Shown in pieces: positions 10,515 through 22,386 of a DNA stretch of 64,000 bases. Source of the stretch: an uncultured Alphaproteobacteria bacterium. GTDB taxonomy: Bacteria; Pseudomonadota; Alphaproteobacteria; Rhizobiales; Beijerinckiaceae. The notes beneath the pieces were generated by a model, which was not told where the DNA came from, ran no database searches, and saw nothing but the letters and a program-made list of their open reading frames with translations. The position numbers and the translations under genes are program-made. Position 1 is the stretch's first letter; each line of letters begins with the position of its first letter. Where the stretch lies: contig CAVZJG010000003.1 in assembly GCA_963775575.1 (NCBI GenBank), forward strand, positions 492,963-556,962, written 5' to 3'.

Positions 10515-13187
<2,673 letters not shown>

Positions 13188-13309
13188 GAACGCTCCGCCT
13201 CGGGGCTGGATTCTCTCGGCTGGCGTTCTAGAGCATGACGGGGGAAAGGCAAACCCGGCGCGAACGGCGGCATTGCGGAGCGGGCGCGGCCGGCGGCGCG
13301 CCCGATGCG

Positions 13310-13345
13310 GCGCGGCCGCGCGCGCCTAGGCTCGCGCGGCCGCGC
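13310..13345 (-). terminator. GC-rich hairpin downstream of recA (possible terminator or REP)
   Basis: 13-bp perfect stem GCGCGGCCGCGCG / CGCGCGGCCGCGC with a 10-nt loop. There is no clear U-tract. Confidence 0.3.
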
Positions 13346-13429
13346 CCGATCGCTCGACGACTTTCCGTCTCCTTGGCGGGTGGGCGCGCTTCTCGTAAGG
13401 GGGACGCCGGCGCGCCCAACGGAGAGGGT

Positions 13430-14518
<1,089 letters not shown>

Positions 14519-14851
14519 CCTTCTCTCACGGTCGGCGCGGTCGAGGCAACTGCCGCCTCGGGCGACCCCCTGGAAAAGAGATATGTGCATGTTTTGTTCT
14601 CCTGCGCAAGTTCTTTTTTGTCCCGATTATGCACTTGACATAATGAGGGCAAAATGTTAGCTAGGTCAACAGAATCGAACTTTCCTGAAACCACAAGCCG
14701 AGGCATCTCGGTTGTTGCGGAGTGCTATCTAGGATTGCAGTGCTCTCAACGCGCGCTCACGTTGGCGGCACTCGCGGCGAATCGTGGTGCTAGGAATCAA
14801 GACATATTAGCGGCTTTTATGGCCGAGTGGGCGAAGGCGCTCTTCGATGAT

Positions 14852-15331
14852 TCATTTGTTGAGAACAAGCTTCAGGAGTTCCATAGAGGCGTTACCTATA
14901 TCTGAAAACACTTCGTCAATGTCCGTTACTGACAATGGGGTAATGGATGTCTTAAGTTTGCCGCGCGAAGAGAGTTGTAGCATGACAACCTGATCGTCTT
15001 GATATGCCAATTTGTTGTGAGCCAATTTATTACGACCGTCTTGTGCTTTCTTCAACATGATTCGTACATTAGGGAATCTTTGCAGATGGGGATAATCGTC
15101 TGCTAATAGGGTTACGAGACTTTCTAAGATATCCATTCGTTGTGGCCACGAGAGATGGGCAACAATTATTGCCGATTTTGGGTCAAATGGGTCGAGGGCC
15201 ATCAATTTGGTAATCGCCAACTCCACAACCAATTCGAGGCCGCCCCAGATATAGGTGACTTTCCCAAGAGCTATCAGGTATGGTTCGGGAAGCGTCGTTC
15301 GCGTCGGATCGAATGGAGGATATTCGTCCAT
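14852..15331 (-). CDS. hypothetical Rx4H (HEPN-like) protein, IS passenger, copy A
   Basis: 159-aa low-GC ORF with helix-rich-looking sequence. The RNKLAH motif (R-x4-H) lies in the C-terminal half. Paralogous to 18351..18839. Confidence 0.6.
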   Translation of the reverse strand: MDEYPPFDPTRTTLPEPYLIALGKVTYIWGGLELVVELAITKLMALDPFDPKSAIIVAHLSWPQRMDILESLVTLLADDYPHLQRFPNVRIMLKKAQDGRNKLAHNKLAYQDDQVVMLQLSSRGKLKTSITPLSVTDIDEVFSDIGNASMELLKLVLNK

Positions 15332-15398
15332 GGCAACCCCTAGCGACTCCTCGTCTAGAGCCGGCGATCAATTTGGAGCCGAAGAGACGGAGCGCCGC

Positions 15399-15536
15399 AT
15401 GAATGACGCTCTTCGCCGCGCACTTAACACGCCCCCCAGGCCGCTCAAAGAGATTGTCGGCAAGGGGGAGCGTGCGACAGCGCAGCGCGAGAGTCGAGTC
15501 AGAAAAGCTGCTCGATCAAAGCCAAAATCGCCCTGA
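15399..15536 (+). CDS. small basic protein, partner of the Rx4H protein, copy A (ORF open from ATG 15330)
   Basis: Core MNDALRRALNTPPRPLKEIVGKGERATAQRESRVRKAARSKPKSP is conserved with copy B, and several differences are synonymous. GGAG lies 6 nt upstream of ATG 15399. The longer start at 15330 overlaps the divergent gene start as CATG. Confidence 0.55.
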   Translation: MNDALRRALNTPPRPLKEIVGKGERATAQRESRVRKAARSKPKSP

Positions 15537-15553
15537 TCTTGGCGCGGTTCCTG

Positions 15554-16513
15554 TTAAACCGCGCGAGCCTGTTGCGCTGAACGAGACGGTCGATAGGTCA
15601 ACCGCTTCCCTTCCGCGCCCTTGACCGCGCGCCGAGCGCGTTCCGTGTCGTCAACGCCAAGGCCGATGCGGTTCGAATAGCGGAAGTCGAATTCGCTCAA
15701 ATACGCCGGCAAATGGTTCTCGCCGCAGTGCTGGTAAATGCCGGTCATGCCGCGCTTGAAGATGCTAAAGAAGCCCTCGACCGTGTTCGTCGTCGTCTCG
15801 CCGCGCGCGTATTCACCCGATCCGTGATTGACAGCTTCATGCTCGGCAAACTTCTTGCCGATCGGCTTGTAGAACTGCGCTTCGTCCGTGTTGAGTGTCG
15901 AGTCCAAGACGACGTGTTTGCCGATAACGGTCTTAAGCGTCTGGACGGTCAAATCCTCGACCTTCACGGACACGGCACGGCCACGGCGCTCGACCATCGT
16001 CAGCACCTTGCGCTTGGTCGCCGTCCCGCGCTTGCCCATCCATCCCTTGCCGGAAACGAAGGTCTGATCGGGCTTGCCAATGAACGTCTCGTCAATCTCG
16101 ACCGTCTTGCCTTTGCCGCCCAAAGGCTCCGGATCGCGATCGGCCATCGCTTCGCGAACGCGATGCGCAAGAAACCACGCCGAACGATAGGAGCCGAGCC
16201 CGAGCGTCCGCATGAGTTGATGCGCCGAAACGCCCTTCTTGCTCGCCGCCATCAAACGGAACGCCAGCGCCCATTTGTGCAACGGGACGTGACTGGACTC
16301 CATGACGGAACCGATCGTCACCGTGAACGGCTTTAGACAGGCGTTGCACTGGTACATGCCGGGCCGATGCGAGCCGCCCTTGATGAGGGTCGCCTGCCCG
16401 ATGACGCCGCAATGCGGGCAAACGGGCTTGCCGTCTGGCCAGCGGATCGACTCGAAATAGACGCGAGCCGCGTCTTCGTTGTTGAAAATCGGATTGGTGA
16501 GATCGAAGGCCAT
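15554..16513 (-). CDS. IS1595-family transposase
   Basis: N-terminal zinc ribbon (FESIRWPDGKPVCPHCG...YQCNAC) and a DDE_Tnp_IS1595 core (VEIDETFIG, LNTDEAQFY, TTNTVEGFFSIFKR). Confidence 0.9.
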   Translation of the reverse strand: MAFDLTNPIFNNEDAARVYFESIRWPDGKPVCPHCGVIGQATLIKGGSHRPGMYQCNACLKPFTVTIGSVMESSHVPLHKWALAFRLMAASKKGVSAHQLMRTLGLGSYRSAWFLAHRVREAMADRDPEPLGGKGKTVEIDETFIGKPDQTFVSGKGWMGKRGTATKRKVLTMVERRGRAVSVKVEDLTVQTLKTVIGKHVVLDSTLNTDEAQFYKPIGKKFAEHEAVNHGSGEYARGETTTNTVEGFFSIFKRGMTGIYQHCGENHLPAYLSEFDFRYSNRIGLGVDDTERARRAVKGAEGKRLTYRPSRSAQQARAV

Positions 16514-16680
16514 CGGAAACTCCTATGACCCGAACAATAGCAGAACGCGCGTATTATGTCAAGTGCATAATCGCCTTTTTTGTTCACGTTGCGCGTGGCG
16601 TAGCGAGGACAAACTAGGGATTTGCCCATGTCAAAGAGTTCAACGAAATCAGGACTGGACGGCCCTATCAACGGAGAATT

Positions 16681-18203
16681 GTAACTCCCAAGGCGTGGTG
16701 AGTCTGGAATGCCACAGTGTTTGGGAAACGGCATTGATATGCGGATTGTGGGAGACGGCGGCACGAGACTGTGAATCAAGGGTGGGATGGTTCTTCCCGC
16801 CGAAGTCGAGGAGTTGATAGCGTCTCTGAGGGCGGAGATCGCGGCGTTGCGGGCCGAGGTGGCCGATCTTCGTCGGCAATTGGGGCGGGACAGCTCGAAC
16901 AGTTCGCAACCGCCTTCGAGTGACGGGCTGCGGAAGAAACCGCGTATTGGAGGCAGTCTGCGCGGCCGTTCGGGCAAGACGAGCGGCGGCCAGACGGGTC
17001 ATAAGGGCGGCACGCTGCGGCAGGTCGCCGATCCCGATTGCGTGGTTGGGCACGCGGCGTGCGCATGCGGCCATTGCGGTTGGCCTCTCGAGGCGGGGTC
17101 GGCGATAGGGGTCGAGAAGCGGCAAGTGTTCGACCTTCCCGAGCGCCCGCTGCGGGTCACGGAACATCAGGCCTCGATTTACCGCTGCGCGCATTGCCGG
17201 GGCGTGACGAAGGCGGTTTTTCCCGAAGGCGTGGTCTCGCCTGCCCAGTATGGCGAGCGCATCAAGGCCGCGGCGATCTATCTCAATGTCCAGCAACTCA
17301 TCCCCGAGGATCGGACCGCGCAAGCGCTGAGCGATCTGTTCGACGCGCCGCTGATCTGTCCGGCCAGCCTTGTCGCTTGGATCGCCAAGAAGGGACAAGA
17401 GTTGCGGCAAGTTTACCAGGCCATCGGCGAGCGCGTGGCCGAGGCGAAGGTTCGCCATCTCGACGAGACGGGATATCGCATCGCCGGTAAGCTGCAATGG
17501 CTGCATACGACTTCGAGCCAAGCCTTCACCTTCTATCGCGCCGACGAAAAGCGCGGCGCGATCCCGCAGGATTTGAAGGGGGGCGTCGTCGTGCACGACC
17601 ACTTCCTGCCTTATCGTCGGCTCGACGCGGTCGAACACGCCTTCTGCAACGCCCATATCTTGCGCGAACTCCAGTGTTTGATCGAGTTCGACAAGGAGCC
17701 GTGGGCCGAACTCATGCGCGACACGCTTCGGGCGGCGAATATCGCCGTTCATGAGGCGCGCGAGGCGGGCGCGAAGGCGCTGGAGCCCAAAGTCATCGCG
17801 GCCTTCGTCGACCAATATTGGGCCGCGGTTCGGCTCGGCCTCGCTTTCCATCGCCAGTTGCCCGCACTCCACGCCAAGGCCAACGCGAGCGGACGAACAA
17901 AGCAGCGCCCCGGCCGCAATCTGCTCGAAAGGCTGAAGACGTTCAAAGTCGAAACGCTGCGCTTCCTCACCGACTTCGACGTGCCCTTCACCAACAACCT
18001 GGCCGAACAGGACCTCAGGATGATGAAGGTCAAAATGAAAATCTCGGGCTCGTTTCGAACCCTCGACGGCGCCCAAAGCTTCGCGCGCCTCAGGTCAGTC
18101 GTCTCAACCGCGAGAAAACAGGGGGCCAACATCCTCAAAACCCTCGCCGACCCGCCAACACAGATCGCGCTCGCCCTCAACGCCTAGACGGCTTGGGAGT
18201 TAC
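16681..18203 (+). mobile_element. IS66-family (ISBst12-like, single-ORF) insertion sequence, 1,523 bp
   Basis: Terminal IRs GTAACTCCCAAG (16681-16692) and the reverse complement at 18192-18203. An 8-bp direct repeat GGAGAATT flanks both ends (16673-16680 and 18204-18211). Confidence 0.88.
16787..18187 (+). CDS. IS66-family transposase
   Basis: 466 aa with an N-terminal coiled coil (LRAEIAALRAEVADLRRQL), cysteine pairs, and HLDETGYRIAGKLQWLH, typical of IS66 TnpC. Confidence 0.9.
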   Translation: MVLPAEVEELIASLRAEIAALRAEVADLRRQLGRDSSNSSQPPSSDGLRKKPRIGGSLRGRSGKTSGGQTGHKGGTLRQVADPDCVVGHAACACGHCGWPLEAGSAIGVEKRQVFDLPERPLRVTEHQASIYRCAHCRGVTKAVFPEGVVSPAQYGERIKAAAIYLNVQQLIPEDRTAQALSDLFDAPLICPASLVAWIAKKGQELRQVYQAIGERVAEAKVRHLDETGYRIAGKLQWLHTTSSQAFTFYRADEKRGAIPQDLKGGVVVHDHFLPYRRLDAVEHAFCNAHILRELQCLIEFDKEPWAELMRDTLRAANIAVHEAREAGAKALEPKVIAAFVDQYWAAVRLGLAFHRQLPALHAKANASGRTKQRPGRNLLERLKTFKVETLRFLTDFDVPFTNNLAEQDLRMMKVKMKISGSFRTLDGAQSFARLRSVVSTARKQGANILKTLADPPTQIALALNA

Positions 18204-18350
18204 GGAGAATTTGACGCTCACGCCGATGTGGTCGGCGGCGACGGCGTCAGGGGTTCGATTGCCCTGGCGATGATCAAGGCTGGGGTAGGCTCGCTCTTGG
18301 AAACGGAATCGGGCAGGAATTTTTCCGTGATGGAAACGGAAGTTTATGTT

Positions 18351-18839
18351 TTAGATATTCTTGAAGCGTGTCTCCCTCAGTATCGCGCTACAAATATGTA
18401 GCTCAAATATATCTATCAACTTACGTATCTTGAAAATCGTTCTCTCAAGTTGGTCCAGCGTCACCTCCTCCCTCTCCATGGTAAGTGATGATTTTGCTGT
18501 AACGGTATTCTTATATATTCTTTCCCCTGTTAATTCGTTAAATTGCATATGCCACGAATCATGAACTATACAATTCCTTTGTTCACCCACGCCTCGCGCA
18601 AATTTCTTGAACTCTGATAGGTCTTCTATTAGCGTTCGAGGAAAGCCTTTTTCTGCGCATAGCGAAATTAGAGCTTGTAGCCTTGGATTCGGTCCAATCA
18701 TCTGCGCAGTAAGACATGCAGTTAAGCGTTGTGGCGCTCCGCATAGGTTCCATATTTGCGCGTCAATTCTTGCCTCCAAAATTGCCCATTCGACCGCGAT
18801 TTTCCCTATGTAGGCGTATTGGGCGGCGTCTTCGGGCAT
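18351..18839 (-). CDS. hypothetical Rx4H (HEPN-like) protein, copy B (ORF open upstream to 19082)
   Basis: Aligns with copy A: GKIAVEWAILEARIDAQIWNL vs GKVTYIWGGLELVVELAITKL, and QRNCIVH vs GRNKLAH. The start at 18839 gives 162 aa, like copy A. Alternative starts are 18878 and 18971. Confidence 0.55.
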   Translation of the reverse strand: MPEDAAQYAYIGKIAVEWAILEARIDAQIWNLCGAPQRLTACLTAQMIGPNPRLQALISLCAEKGFPRTLIEDLSEFKKFARGVGEQRNCIVHDSWHMQFNELTGERIYKNTVTAKSSLTMEREEVTLDQLERTIFKIRKLIDIFELHICSAILRETRFKNI

Positions 18840-19017
18840 TGGCGTGATGCTTGTTATCGCTCCGGGATGCCCGATCATCACGGCCCTAACGCCGCTTCGC
18901 TTCTTGCGGAGTTCGGTTGGGTCTGGCAAGTTTGAGAACTTGGCGAAATACTTATCAATGTCGCTAATCATGAAAAATGTGCCCCAAGATTTCTCCGATG
19001 GAGAAATCACACGCCGC

Positions 19018-19155
19018 ATGAACGCTGGCATCCGTCGCGCGCTGAGCCCGCCGCCGTCCCCGACGAAGGAACTCGTCGGCAAGACGGAGCGTGCGACAGC
19101 GCAGCGCGAGAGTCTAGTCAGAGAAGCGTCTCGATCAAAGCCAAAATTGTCCTGA
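19018..19155 (+). CDS. small basic protein, copy B (ORF open from ATG 18970)
   Basis: MNAGIRRALSPPPSPTKELVGKTERATAQRESLVREASRSKPKLS is homologous to copy A. Confidence 0.5.
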   Translation: MNAGIRRALSPPPSPTKELVGKTERATAQRESLVREASRSKPKLS

Positions 19156-19159
19156 ATCT

Positions 19160-19232
19160 TTCGCGGTTTCCGTTAGACTGCGCCAACTGCCAGCATCCGC
19201 TAAACGGCAACAGTCTGCGCTCCCTTCCCCCC
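19160..19232 (-). pseudogene. relic of the 3' end of an IS1595-type transposase gene
   Basis: DNA similarity to 15538-15625 (GCGGTT.C.GTTA.AC.GCGC ... GCT.AACG...CCCTTCC) stops where repeat copy A begins. Confidence 0.4.
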
Positions 19233-19240
19233 TCCCGGGG

Positions 19241-19600
19241 CTAGCGGATTCACACATCCAAGTTCGATATCTTCCGGGTCCGCTGTGCCTGATCCGTGCT
19301 CGGCGTCAAGGCCAAGCCCGTTTCACGGGTCGCTCGCTCACGCTCGCGAGCCTTGACTCCTGCGCGCGGCTCAGGCTGTCGGCTACTGTGATCATTGCTG
19401 CGCAAGCCGGCCATGCGGCCGGCTTCGCTCAGCAACGATCGCAGTAGCAAGACCGCCGCCGGAACGGCGCTGGCGCCTCAAGGCGAACGCGTAGCGTTCG
19501 TCCGGGCGAAGCGGGCGAAGCGCAGCGGAGCAGCCGCGGAACGGCGGCCGAACGCTACGCGTTCGCCTGGACTTGACGGCGACGCGCCGATGCGGCCGTC
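19241..19600. repeat. structured ~330-bp repeat, copy A
   Basis: Aligns with 24142-24455. A long identical stretch is CTTCCGGGTCCGCTGTGCCTGATCCGTGCTCGGCGTCAA. Several hairpins carry compensatory changes. Confidence 0.75.
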
Positions 19601-19616
19601 GGCGCTCGCGCTTCTC

Positions 19617-20726
19617 TCACGCGCGCGCCGCGACGCACGGCGGCGGCGCCGCCTCGTCGAACTTGCCCACGAACGCCCGGTTGCGGCCGGCGTGCTTGGC
19701 CCGGTAGAGGGCGGCGTCGGCCGCGGCGATCAGGCGCTCGGGATTGACCTCCCGGCCGACGGCGACGACGCCGCCGATGCTCAAGGTGACGTTCTTGGCG
19801 GCGGCGGAGTCGGTGTGGACGATGTGCAGCGCCTCGATCGCCATCCGCAGACGCTCGGCGATCAACATGGCGCCCGAGAGCGGCGTGTTGGGCATGACGA
19901 CGGTAAATTCCTCGCCGCCGTATCGCGCGCAAAAATCGGTCTCCCGCCACAGCGTCGCCGCGATCGCCTGGGCGATCGCGCGCAGGCATTCGTCGCCCTT
20001 CTGATGGCCGTTGGAGTCGTTGTAGAGCTTGAAAAAATCGACGTCCATCATCAGCAGCGACAGGGGCGCGCAGTCGCGCGTCGCGCGCTTGGCCTCTTCG
20101 GCGAACTTGACGTCGAACGATCGCCGGTTCGCCAGTCCGGTGAGGCCGTCGCGGGTCGCCAGCGCCTCCAGATCGGTTTGCGCTTGTTTCTGGGCGGTGA
20201 TGTCGCGCAGCGTTTGCACCACCGCGATCAGCTCGCCCGCGTCGTCGTAGATCGGCCCGGCGTCGATCGCCAGATACAGCCGGTGGCCGAGTCTCGGCAT
20301 CAGGCACCAGTTTTCCGCGGAAACGCCGAAATCGCTCAACCCGAGGCTGCCGTCGCCCTGATAAAGCGCGCGGATTTCGTTGAAACGGCGCGCCAGCAGC
20401 AGATCGGACAGGCACGGCCGACGTTCGGGGTAGAAGGCTCGCCAGTGCTCGGACGTGCCGACGACCTCCTCGGCGGGCACCCCGGTCAACCGTTCGCAGG
20501 CTTTGTTCCAAATCAGCACACGGCGATCCGCCCCGATGACGAAAGTCGGAACAATGAGATGCTCCATCAAGCTGATGGCAAAGCCGTGGTCCCTCTCCGG
20601 AACCATCGACCGAATTGCTAGCTTCTCCGGCAGCGGGGGCATAGAGGCGATGTTAGCGCAAAAACTGGTTAAGGATTGATCAAAAGCGCCGCTGAATTGG
20701 CCGCTGTCGCGCGATGCGCGCGCCAT
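19617..20726 (-). CDS. PAS-GGDEF diguanylate cyclase
   Basis: PAS-like N-terminal part (VLIWNKACERLTG), then RDGLTGLANRR, DVDFFKLYND, YGGEEF, RAKHAGRN. The start is uncertain: 20726, 20642 or 20567. Confidence 0.85.
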   Translation of the reverse strand: MARASRDSGQFSGAFDQSLTSFCANIASMPPLPEKLAIRSMVPERDHGFAISLMEHLIVPTFVIGADRRVLIWNKACERLTGVPAEEVVGTSEHWRAFYPERRPCLSDLLLARRFNEIRALYQGDGSLGLSDFGVSAENWCLMPRLGHRLYLAIDAGPIYDDAGELIAVVQTLRDITAQKQAQTDLEALATRDGLTGLANRRSFDVKFAEEAKRATRDCAPLSLLMMDVDFFKLYNDSNGHQKGDECLRAIAQAIAATLWRETDFCARYGGEEFTVVMPNTPLSGAMLIAERLRMAIEALHIVHTDSAAAKNVTLSIGGVVAVGREVNPERLIAAADAALYRAKHAGRNRAFVGKFDEAAPPPCVAARA

Positions 20727-20799
20727 GGCGTGCGGCCGGCCGGGAGCGGCGCGGCGCCTCGCCGCCCGAGACGGATATGGCGCGGCGTCGGACCGATCG

Positions 20800-22386
20800 T
20801 CATAATGCCGGCGCCGTTCGCCCGACCGACTCGTAAACGTCATACGAGTCGGCCTCGCCCGCCACGTGAGCAAGAAGACGATAGGAACGCGCGAGAGCGT
20901 CGTCGACGACGAGCCAGTTCGCGGTGAGCTCGCAATAATATCGTTGTCTGCGATCGGCGACGACGACGTAACGAGGCCGGGTCGCCAGAGCTTCGGCAAG
21001 GCGGCCGAGGCCGGCGTCGGGGAAATCGCAAATCATGTGCATCGGGAAAAAGCGCGCCGTCGGCGGCGACAAATTCGTCGCCGTATAGAGCCAGACGCCG
21101 CGATTGACGACGAAGAGCTTGTCGCCCGGCGCTGGCGCGCTGGCGCGGATGGCCTCGGCGGCCTCGGCGATCGCGCGCGTCTCTGGGCGCGCCTTGAGTT
21201 CGCCGGCGCGAATATAGAGCGCCGCTGCGACCGTTGCGAGCCCGACCATCGCAAGGCGGGCCGCTGGCGCGATCCGCGCCAAGGCCGGAAGCGCGAAGAT
21301 GACGAGACCGCCCGTCAGCAACAGGCCCGGCGCCAAGGTCGGCCCGAGATAGTTTTCGTTGATCGAGCGCTGAATCGCCACGGAAAGGCTGGCGAGCGCG
21401 AACCACAGCCCGAGAGCGCCGACGGGAACGCCCGGCGCCGCCCTGGCGAGCGCGCTTCGGCGCATCAACGCGAGGCAAGCGAGGCCGAATATCGGCATCA
21501 CGCTCCGCTGAAGCGGCAGCCACCGCATGAGGCCCGCCGCGAAGGAAATATCCTCGACGTCGCTCGCGGGACGGCGCAAGGCGTTGACAATCGTGTCGGC
21601 GATCAACGGGCCGGCTGCGCCGCGCCAGGCGAAATAGAGGAGAAAGCCCAGCGGCGCGACGAGCGCGGCGAGCGCGAACGCCGCCGCAACCTCAATCCTG
21701 CGGGGCGCGGCGTCCGGCGCGCGCAGCACAATCGCCAGCAGCGCGATGGCCTCGAAGGCGGCGGTCTGCTTGACCGCGCCGGCCGCGCCGATGGCGAGGC
21801 CCGCCAGCGCGGCTCTCTTAAGGATAGGCAATGGCGACAGCGCGGCCAGGAACGCCAGCGTCGTCAGCGCGGCGAGCGGCGGATAGGCGTCGTTGCCCGC
21901 CACGGCCTCGGAAAGGAACGGGTAGAGGATCGCGGCGAACATGCCGAGCGTCGTGGAGCCGAAGCGACGGCCGAGAAAAAACAAGTTCGTCGCCGCGACG
22001 GCGTCGCTGAAGATCGCGACCGCCCGCAACGCGTCGAGACTAGGGCCGAGCCACAATTCGGCGACCGCGACAAGCGCGAACAAGCCCGGCGGCTTGACGT
22101 CGAAAGCGCCGACATAGGGCGGCGCCCCGCGCGCCCAGAGATGGCCGACCTCGATGTAGAAGGGGGCGTCCGGACCATCCAGTCGCCACAGCGGCAGGCG
22201 CAGCGCGGCCGTCCAGACCAGCGCGGCGCCGAGGACCGCGAGCGCGAAGCCGACGCGGCCGACGCGCGGATACGGGCTTCGACGAGCGGCAAAGGCCGTA
22301 TCGTCGATCGAACCGACGGGAGGCGCGCTTGCGGGCGCGTCGCGAACGCGCCGACGAGCCGTCGTTGCAAGTCCGCGAGCGCTCAT
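20800..22386 (-). CDS. polytopic membrane protein, GT-C/ArnT-PMT-like glycosyltransferase (paralog 1)
   Basis: 528 aa from MSARGLATT. Many hydrophobic segments. The first loop is LPLWRLDGPDAPFYIEVGHLWARGAPPYVGAFDVKPPGLF. ATG 22386 overlaps the upstream stop as ATGA. Confidence 0.7.
   Translation of the reverse strand: MSARGLATTARRRVRDAPASAPPVGSIDDTAFAARRSPYPRVGRVGFALAVLGAALVWTAALRLPLWRLDGPDAPFYIEVGHLWARGAPPYVGAFDVKPPGLFALVAVAELWLGPSLDALRAVAIFSDAVAATNLFFLGRRFGSTTLGMFAAILYPFLSEAVAGNDAYPPLAALTTLAFLAALSPLPILKRAALAGLAIGAAGAVKQTAAFEAIALLAIVLRAPDAAPRRIEVAAAFALAALVAPLGFLLYFAWRGAAGPLIADTIVNALRRPASDVEDISFAAGLMRWLPLQRSVMPIFGLACLALMRRSALARAAPGVPVGALGLWFALASLSVAIQRSINENYLGPTLAPGLLLTGGLVIFALPALARIAPAARLAMVGLATVAAALYIRAGELKARPETRAIAEAAEAIRASAPAPGDKLFVVNRGVWLYTATNLSPPTARFFPMHMICDFPDAGLGRLAEALATRPRYVVVADRRQRYYCELTANWLVVDDALARSYRLLAHVAGEADSYDVYESVGRTAPAL

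Follow-up and report, generated by a model that had tools for sequence, protein, structure and literature searches.

A transporter insertion sequence of the IS1595 family upstream of recA: a small gene that is probably part of the element backbone and an RNxxxH gene that is probably exchangeable cargo

Transporter insertion sequences (tIS) are insertion sequences (IS) that hold passenger genes inside their inverted repeats, and they have been described as confined to two families, IS1595 and IS66 (TnCentral preprint). In Tn3-family transposons, ribonuclease (RNase)-type toxins (PIN, Gp49 and, in one case, HEPN) are found beside the transposition genes and have been acquired several times independently (Lima-Mendez et al. 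2020, PMC7157771). Among the HEPN proteins, AbiD/F, AbiU2 and AbiV are single-gene effectors on mobile DNA that have no dedicated antitoxin (PMC3710099); for the Cthe_2314 family, Anantharaman et al. (2013, PMC3710099) give the entry 'no contextual association detected'. The subject of the present work is an IS1595-family tIS, and the remnant of a related element, found in a window of 64,000 nucleotides, i.e. the whole stretch of DNA that was analysed (positions 492,963 to 556,962 of contig CAVZJG010000003.1, GenBank assembly GCA_963775575.1), from an uncultured alphaproteobacterium of the Beijerinckiaceae. Positions given below are those of the window.

The intact element (copy A) and the remnant (copy B) each contain a gene for a small basic protein and, head to head with it, a gene for a larger protein with an RNxxxH motif. 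In our reading, which we hold to be the probable one, the small gene is a conserved part of the element backbone and the large gene is an exchangeable cargo, so that the two do not form a matched toxin-antitoxin couple. The evidence comes from the structure of the element itself and from the comparison of its parts with those of related elements elsewhere.

The element, its backbone and its cargo

Copy A is an IS1595-family tIS, in which the transposase, the inverted repeats with the target-site duplication, and the passenger genes inside the repeats are all present. The features of the two copies are the following.

14614–14621: left copy of the target-site duplication, TTTTTTGT, on the recA side, where the flank reads ...GTTCTTTTTTGT and the IS then begins
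14622–16575, minus strand: intact IS1595-family tIS of 1,954 bp, which holds the transposase gene, the small gene and the cargo gene
14622–14644, plus strand: inverted repeat at the cargo end (inverted repeat right, IRR)
14852–15331, minus strand: cargo gene A, encoding a helical, HEPN-like protein of 159 residues with RNKLAH (R100, N101, H105)
15329–15332: CATG, in which the two divergent start codons share 2 nt
15330–15536, plus strand: small gene A (probable backbone), 68 residues, with an internal ATG at 15399
15554–16513, minus strand: IS1595-family transposase of 319 residues, with a zinc ribbon and a DDE domain
16553–16575, minus strand: inverted repeat at the transposase end (inverted repeat left, IRL), which contains the TTGACA of the promoter-like site of the transposase gene (tnp)
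16576–16583: right copy of the target-site duplication, TTTTTTGT; the IS is followed by TTTTTTGTTC
18351–18971, minus strand: cargo gene B, 206 residues, a distant homologue of cargo A, with RNCIVH (R132, H137)
18970–19155, plus strand: small gene B, 61 residues
19156–19183: remnant of the tnp 3′ end beside copy B, where the likeness to copy A ends

The ends of the copy A element begin CCCGATTATGCAC... and GGCGATTATGCAC..., and they carry perfect (100%) inverted repeats of 21 nt (14624–14644 and 16553–16573), inside which both the large and the small open reading frame (ORF) are found, and outside which the 8-bp direct repeat TTTTTTGT stands at either end. The transposase matches the Pfam families DDE_Tnp_IS1595 (PF12762, E 6.4e-34) and Zn_ribbon_IS1595 (PF12760, E 7e-13), in both cases above the curated cut-offs; a promoter-like TTGACA-17-TATTGT is available for its gene in the transposase-side repeat. 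The gene converges on the small gene, and the two stop codons stand 17 nt apart. The ends GGCGATTAT and CCCGATTAT are called ISNwi1-like here, a putative assignment based on the subgroup consensus, GGnnATTAT. Siguier, Gagnevin and Chandler are said to have dealt in 2009 with IS1595-family tIS and their ISNwi1 and ISNwi1+ groups.

A preliminary description of this DNA, made from the sequence alone, had presented both large-small gene pairs as passengers of an IS. This holds for copy A, which lies within inverted repeats flanked by a target-site duplication, but not for copy B, which has nothing of the transposase except its last few codons and no recognisable IS end; a search for such an end beside copy B, by an inverted-repeat pattern with three mismatches and by local alignment with the intervening IS66 element removed, gave nothing convincing. 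In copy B we see another and older element of this clade, stripped of its transposase and ends but still with its small gene and cargo. The layout of divergent large and small ORFs is common to the two copies, as had been stated, and the coordinates first given for copy A are exact, including the CATG start overlap, which is read in the sequence; the large gene of copy B, previously begun at 18839 (162 residues), has been extended to start at 18971, giving 206 residues, because the N-terminal 45 residues are kept in both its homologues, P0014 and P0015 (201 residues). The CATG overlap is also found in copy B and, among other loci (designated by L-numbers), in L001, L047/L051 and the diverged L050. 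The G+C content of the cargo genes is 41–45%, as compared with ~60% for tnp and 65–73% for the flanking chromosome, which points to a source of lower G+C content and makes the cargo look foreign.

The order transposase, small gene on the opposite strand, large gene and inverted repeat recurs on the unrelated metagenome contigs L001 and L004, the large gene being of the A type in the former and of the B type in the latter. When copy B of the window is compared with L001, the small proteins are 75% identical and the cargo proteins are of different types (28%); when it is compared with L004, the B-type cargo proteins are 60% identical and the small proteins merely 45%, and the L004 transposase is likewise more distant (59–60% versus 78%). 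Because the identity of the small protein follows the lineage of the element and not the cargo, the small gene appears to travel with the element while the cargo is exchanged.

The neighbourhood counts agree on this point across the 40 genome loci that were recovered with the small-protein profile. The IS1595 tnp lies on the 3′ side of the small gene in 33 of them, convergent within ~80 nt in 28 of these, and in most loci inverted repeats bound elements of 1.9–3.3 kb. On the other side, the gene facing the small ORF is far more varied: it is recognised as a member of the large family in seven loci by the hidden Markov model (HMM) of that family and in nine by hhalign (probability of at least 70%), three further facing genes have the RNxxxH motif with no detectable relation to the large family, and the remaining ones are unrelated, Cys-rich HNH-like proteins included. 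The pattern RN...H occurs in 11 of the 20 cargo ORFs compared, as opposed to 4% of background ORF segments of similar length.

The same loci bear on the alternative, also raised in the preliminary description, that the small basic protein and the RNxxxH protein form a dedicated toxin-antitoxin, abortive-infection or IS-addiction module, with the small protein as the cognate antitoxin and the divergent start overlap as the regulatory logic. Close homologues of both cargo types do keep the head-to-head small gene (L001, L004, L047/L051), and the CATG overlap is kept even in the diverged L050. However, when the survey starts from the large gene, the association loosens: A-type homologues have an IS1595 tnp just upstream in 12 of 16 metagenome loci, the other four being cut by contig ends, and beside them the small ORF can be recognised in L047 and L051, has diverged (keeping a TPPxPH motif) in L048, L050, L052 and L053, and is missing from the IS1595 elements L046, L054 and L057-60. 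B-type homologues occur without the small ORF on phage-like contigs (L002/L003), as does the large family on Pseudomonas syringae plasmids, and in PLSDB no plasmid encodes the small protein and seven encode the large one. Conservation of the small gene beside homologues of the large gene elsewhere, which had been expected for such a module, is thus found in some of these loci and fails in the others. That related tIS carry PIN/VapC toxins along with a protein of 61–62 residues with a similar R-x-KPK tail would suit a module of this kind; against it, similarity among the small proteins is uncoupled from similarity among the cargo proteins, and most loci have a non-homologous gene opposite the small one. 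Furthermore, the genes are divergent and not co-directional as the type II toxin-antitoxin arrangement demands, and no MNT or other antitoxin-type domain was found in the small protein. A dedicated partnership, in which the small protein should track the cargo and the large family should not occur alone, is in our judgement unlikely, and the small protein should not be labelled in annotations as the antitoxin of a HEPN toxin.

Several results weigh against the backbone-and-cargo reading itself. The identities of the small proteins and of the transposases correlate weakly (rho 0.32); the cargo slot is filled in all 40 loci, some cargo always standing between the small gene and the IS end; and the copies that are devoid of a transposase (copy B of the window, L007, L014, L018) still keep both the small gene and the cargo. 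The never-empty slot and the transposase-less pairs, which also speak for the toxin-antitoxin alternative, fit a functional unit of small gene plus cargo at least equally well. As to control signals, a scan for sigma-70-type promoters gave nothing in the head-to-head region, and z-scores of -1.2 to -0.2 led to the rejection of a conserved terminator hairpin in the interval from the small gene to tnp.

The small protein of copy A is acidic in its N-terminal part; it further has an RRxxAxRRALxTPPxP helix and a basic tail whose last residues are RSKPKSP. It shares 35 of 54 residues with that of copy B (BLASTP E 1e-21), and the sole long DNA repeat of the region (15393–15564 versus 19012–19183; 172 nt, 76%) is found here. 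The ratio of non-synonymous to synonymous substitution rates (dN/dS) of the small ORF is 0.40 between the two copies, 201 pairs taken from related loci have a median of 0.33, and the sense frame is open in 23 of 23 full-length copies, as compared with 8–9 of 23 for the antisense frames. The low dN/dS and the maintenance of the sense frame argue for a conserved protein, and not just conserved DNA, at the small ORF, as had been proposed from synonymous differences between the copies. The profile built on it recovers at least 296 relatives of 56–110 residues (nearly all 56–91), none of them annotated. No known family and no antitoxin-type domain were found for the small protein by Pfam/NCBIfam-type scans and profile searches, the sole resemblance, not significant, being that of the basic tail to the ribosomal RNA-binding tail of ribosomal protein bL21m (E 0.09).

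It might still be asked whether the small ORF is a functional protein at all, or whether what is conserved is DNA or RNA at the 3′ end of tnp, e.g. an antisense regulator, given that the best-conserved stretch of DNA between copies A and B continues beyond the small-ORF stop codon into the tnp 3′ end and that merely 17 nt separate the stops of the two convergent genes. The dN/dS values and the open sense frames speak the other way, as do the number of homologous proteins and the conservation of the protein in loci where the DNA has diverged (L001, L048, L050–L053). On the side of RNA, no significant fold and no Rfam match were found, the Rfam scan of positions 13000–21000 having returned only a spurious, below-threshold microRNA match, on both strands, at the hairpin 19485–19564. 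Such an explanation therefore strikes us as very improbable indeed.

Small proteins with a comparable tail are seen in distant IS1595 tIS, namely L062 (2934–5529, on a plasmid of Roseomonas marmotae) and L063 (pMOC1 of Methylobacterium oryzae), where tnp is followed by co-directional genes for an uncharacterised protein of 266–288 residues, a PIN/VapC-family protein and a protein of 61–62 residues. The tails of the latter (ARQKPKG..., ARHKPKESSP) resemble RSKPKSP, and the small-protein HMM does not detect these proteins.

The order of the element is IRL with the tnp promoter, tnp, the convergent gene for a basic protein of 60–70 residues, the head-to-head cargo and IRR, the start codons of the small gene and of the cargo overlapping or lying within ~20 nt. 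In related elements the slot is taken by diverged members of the same family, other RNxxxH proteins or unrelated proteins. How the element may work can be proposed as follows. Where an RNxxxH protein fills the slot, the cargo would probably be a stand-alone HEPN-type RNase, an effector of abortive infection or addiction by which the element would earn its retention. Each promoter would be placed inside the coding region of the other gene, with one control region shared by the small gene and the cargo; the 5′ ends would therefore be antisense to each other, or the transcripts leaderless, and the expression of the two genes would be coupled or opposed. The basic tail being of a type usual in nucleic-acid binders, the small protein may regulate the slot in a generic way and not serve any one cargo as its antitoxin, and it possibly also regulates the convergent transposase gene through convergent transcription. 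We also weighed, and dropped, the idea that the small protein chooses the target, since it is carried by subclades whose flanks differ (ACAAAAAA in one, TCCGGAT in the other).

The RNxxxH proteins and the HEPN question

Direct comparison of the large proteins of copies A and B by BLASTP is not significant (21% identity over 99 residues, E 0.22), whereas profile-profile comparison of their families by hhalign gives a probability of 94% (E 1.1e-7, 137 columns, 19% identity). In a joint alignment LPE, G, W..LE and R-N-x3-H are lined up. The earlier statement that the two proteins align along their length is therefore borne out at the level of family profiles and not at that of the pairwise search, and on the profile evidence cargo A and cargo B are to be regarded as distant homologues. 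The non-synonymous difference between the two large genes is 0.27–0.28, with synonymous sites saturated at 0.81–0.83; both the small and the large genes are under purifying selection. Cargo A has 12 close homologues, and the large family as a whole comprises 954 clusters at E ≤ 0.001 among 1.84 billion representatives. In 103 diverse members H105 is invariant and G23, E33, R100 and N101 are at least 90% conserved, so that the R-x4-H motif, which has the Rx4-6H form of HEPN proteins and was rightly singled out at the outset in both proteins (RNKLAH and RNCIVH), is the best-conserved feature of the family.

Away from IS1595 elements, a member of 176 residues (34% identity) is encoded by the P. 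syringae plasmid pPs6-9 (L045, 3950–4480) and by six similar plasmids. Its gene lies 15 nt downstream of a hypothetical gene of 228 residues, with neither an IS nor a small ORF, and close to the genes for an SOS-response-associated peptidase and for a tyrosine recombinase.

The preliminary description took the motif to be the signature of HEPN RNases. For HEPN domains, Anantharaman et al. (2013, PMC3710099) place the motif at the end of helix 3 or the start of the loop between helices 3 and 4, in a four-helix up-down bundle. The AlphaFold model of protein A (predicted local distance difference test score, pLDDT, 88.5; predicted template modelling score, pTM, 0.80) has helices at 16–43, 51–58, 62–76 and 81–104, then three strands at 107–132 and a last helix at 135–157, and the model of protein B (pLDDT 74.2) has the same order of secondary structures. 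In both the motif ends the third long helix (81–104 in A, 112–137 in B), and a three-stranded sheet precedes the final helix. Matches to HEPN_Cthe2314 are found below threshold in 12 of the 103 relatives (best E 4.8e-4), with one to HEPN_LA2681, and the RNNIIH region of cargo L040 aligns to HEPN_Cthe2314 at 15.2 bits, the cut-off being 27.1 bits.

The searches of curated families and of solved structures tell against an RNase assignment. The large proteins of the window have no match in Pfam, NCBIfam, PADLOC or PHROGs, and nothing above threshold was found for the cargo proteins of related elements, of which 20 were scanned by Pfam/PADLOC and ten against the PADLOC models. Foldseek is weak on short helical bundles. 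Run against the Protein Data Bank (PDB) with both models, it returned nothing at E ≤ 0.001 and no HEPN entry in the top 50, the best match having E 0.14 for model A (for which the highest listed template modelling (TM) score was 0.34) and E 0.073 for model B; profile or sequence searches of PDB sequences (A5, A6, L010, L040) gave chance-level matches only. BFVD yielded a single neighbour in structure, a phage protein without a name (TM 0.66). Since no curated family and no solved structure matches, the assignment as RNase rests on the motif.

The HEPN signature claimed earlier is thus backed by the motif itself, by its place at the end of the third long helix of the models and by the sub-threshold Cthe2314 matches, and not by a match to a known family or a known structure; the structural comparison that had been suggested as a check, Foldseek on AlphaFold models, matched neither model to a solved HEPN structure. 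The evidence for HEPN membership of the large family is weak, and from the Foldseek outcome it follows that the large protein should be named HEPN-like, as sequence and model suggest, and not filed as a HEPN member.

A different account of the same data takes the large protein for something other than a nuclease, the RNxxxH residues serving ligand or nucleic-acid binding, regulation or anti-defence in a new fold without HEPN ancestry. The two models would allow it, as they share four helices and a three-stranded sheet inserted before the last helix, match no solved structure and have the unnamed phage protein as sole neighbour; so would the Pfam HEPN matches, all of which remain under the gathering score, and the position of the conserved acidic E33, which is in the first long helix and not in helix 2, where the HEPN review places an acidic residue. 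On the other hand, RNxxxH is exactly the common HEPN form R-N-x3-H, it is the sole invariant feature across the 103 members, and it is found where the third core helix ends and the next loop starts, in line with the description of HEPN domains, while the sole Pfam family that is matched repeatedly (by 12 members) is a HEPN family. We regard the non-nuclease account as somewhat unlikely.

The recA site and the SOS-box-like repeat

The chromosomal surroundings of the two copies, and the repeat upstream of tnp, are as follows.

10515–13187, minus strand: alaS
13430–14590, minus strand: recA
16532–16546, minus strand: GTTC-N7-GTTC direct repeat, GTTCTGCTATTGTTC, overlapping the -10-like hexamer of the tnp promoter-like site
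16787–18187, plus strand: IS66-family transposase, 466 residues
19617–20999, minus strand: GGDEF-type ORF

Both in the window, where ~100 nt part it from recA, and in 14 of the 40 genome loci, which belong to different species, the element is inserted immediately upstream of that gene (the loci on which this observation rests being L005, L007, L008, L013, L016, L017, L018, L021, L022, L024, L026, L029, L031 and L032, with L047 besides). The flank on the recA side reads GTTC T6-7 GT and the other flank TTTTTTGTTC, and from both flanks the empty site can be reconstructed as GTTC-N7-GTTC (with T7; GTTC-T6-GTTC in the window). This direct repeat is the alphaproteobacterial LexA-binding consensus (PMC3091678). 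The same type of repeat is present at tnp. In 13 related loci it occupies the corresponding position, its half-sites being constant and its spacers differing, and subclades whose ends have other sequences lack it. Its overlap with the promoter-like site suggests, from the sequence, that expression of the transposase may be repressed by LexA and induced in the SOS response.

Part of the recA-site pattern may simply reflect vertical inheritance, because the identities of RecA and of the transposase correlate (rho 0.46). Nevertheless, the opposite orientation in three loci and the differing cargo argue for several separate insertions upstream of recA. In a sister subclade (L010, L028, L030, L046, L048), with ends GGCGATTATATACTTGACA, the flanks are of the TCCGGAT type and not ACAAAAAA, and there is no LexA-type box; target preference, as the flanks differ, seems to differ between subclades. 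In the window, a promoter-like TTGACC-18-CATTAT (14640–14669, minus strand) is found just inside the cargo-side end and is directed outwards, towards recA, so that it could drive or supplement recA transcription after the splitting of the operator.

A bolder picture can be drawn, in which the element is a cassette shuttle wired to the SOS response through four linked properties: (i) a LexA-type operator on the tnp promoter; (ii) homing to the LexA operator of recA; (iii) a conserved small adaptor next to a hot-swappable slot for stand-alone RNase-like effectors, of the RNxxxH family and of others, under divergent control with overlapping starts; and (iv) a small protein that acts as a generic regulator or neutraliser and so allows diverse toxic cargo. 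We consider this combination improbable as a whole; were it true, the shuttle would be a miniature analogue of the integron cassette platform built on an insertion sequence.

Two further observations concern the region between and beyond the copies. A separate IS66-family element (16681–18203) lies between copies A and B, with 16-nt inverted repeats GTAACTCCCAAGGCGT and an 8-bp target-site duplication GGAGAATT at 16673–16680 and 18204–18211; it has a single transposase with DUF6444, zf-IS66 and DDE_Tnp_IS66 domains and neither of the accessory genes tnpA and tnpB. Beyond copy B, an inverted repeat of 45 nt (78% complementary, with a 40-nt spacer) is found at 19460–19589, over the 3′ end of the GGDEF-type ORF.

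Significance and comparison with known systems

Cargo-carrying insertion sequences are a known but little-studied class. What is added here is a defined architecture, with a conserved protein of 60–70 residues and an exchangeable slot, that recurs across many soil Alphaproteobacteria, and a clear genomic context for two unannotated families (954 clusters and at least 296 proteins, respectively). If the RNxxxH cargo is an RNase effector, such genes move at the scale of a single IS, i.e. in a mini-vehicle for toxins or defence, and the location in the recA operator together with the LexA-type box at tnp suggests that transposition is coupled to the SOS response of the host. In the literature, no published description was found of a conserved small gene between tnp and cargo, of a head-to-head slot with overlapping starts, of RNxxxH cargo or of insertion in the recA operator for IS1595 elements.

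The toxin-antitoxin modules embedded in Tn3-family transposons, the nearest concept, are alike in that RNase-type toxin genes adjoin transposition genes; they differ in being co-directional type II systems with known antitoxins (MNT for the HEPN case), whereas here the divergent partner, of 60–70 residues, belongs to no family and is conserved independently of the cargo. HEPN-MNT systems of type II/VII resemble the present pair in the possible HEPN RNase toxin of ~130–200 residues carried on a mobile element, but no MNT nucleotidyltransferase and no co-directional operon are found here, and the partner does not co-vary with the toxin candidate. The HEPN Cthe_2314-like proteins (PF18730) have R-N-x3-H where the third helix of a helical domain ends, as is also seen in the models of the large proteins, although the matches of the large family remain below the gathering score, those of the window give none, and in the large proteins a three-stranded sheet separates the motif from the last helix. 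The large protein lacks a sequence match to the Abi families or to any PADLOC model, yet, like the stand-alone HEPN Abi proteins, it would be a single-gene effector on mobile DNA without a dedicated antitoxin. With the IS1595-family tIS, finally, which are the closest known kind, the element has in common the DDE_Tnp_IS1595 transposase with its N-terminal zinc ribbon, the short terminal inverted repeats, the 8-bp target-site duplication and the passenger genes held inside.

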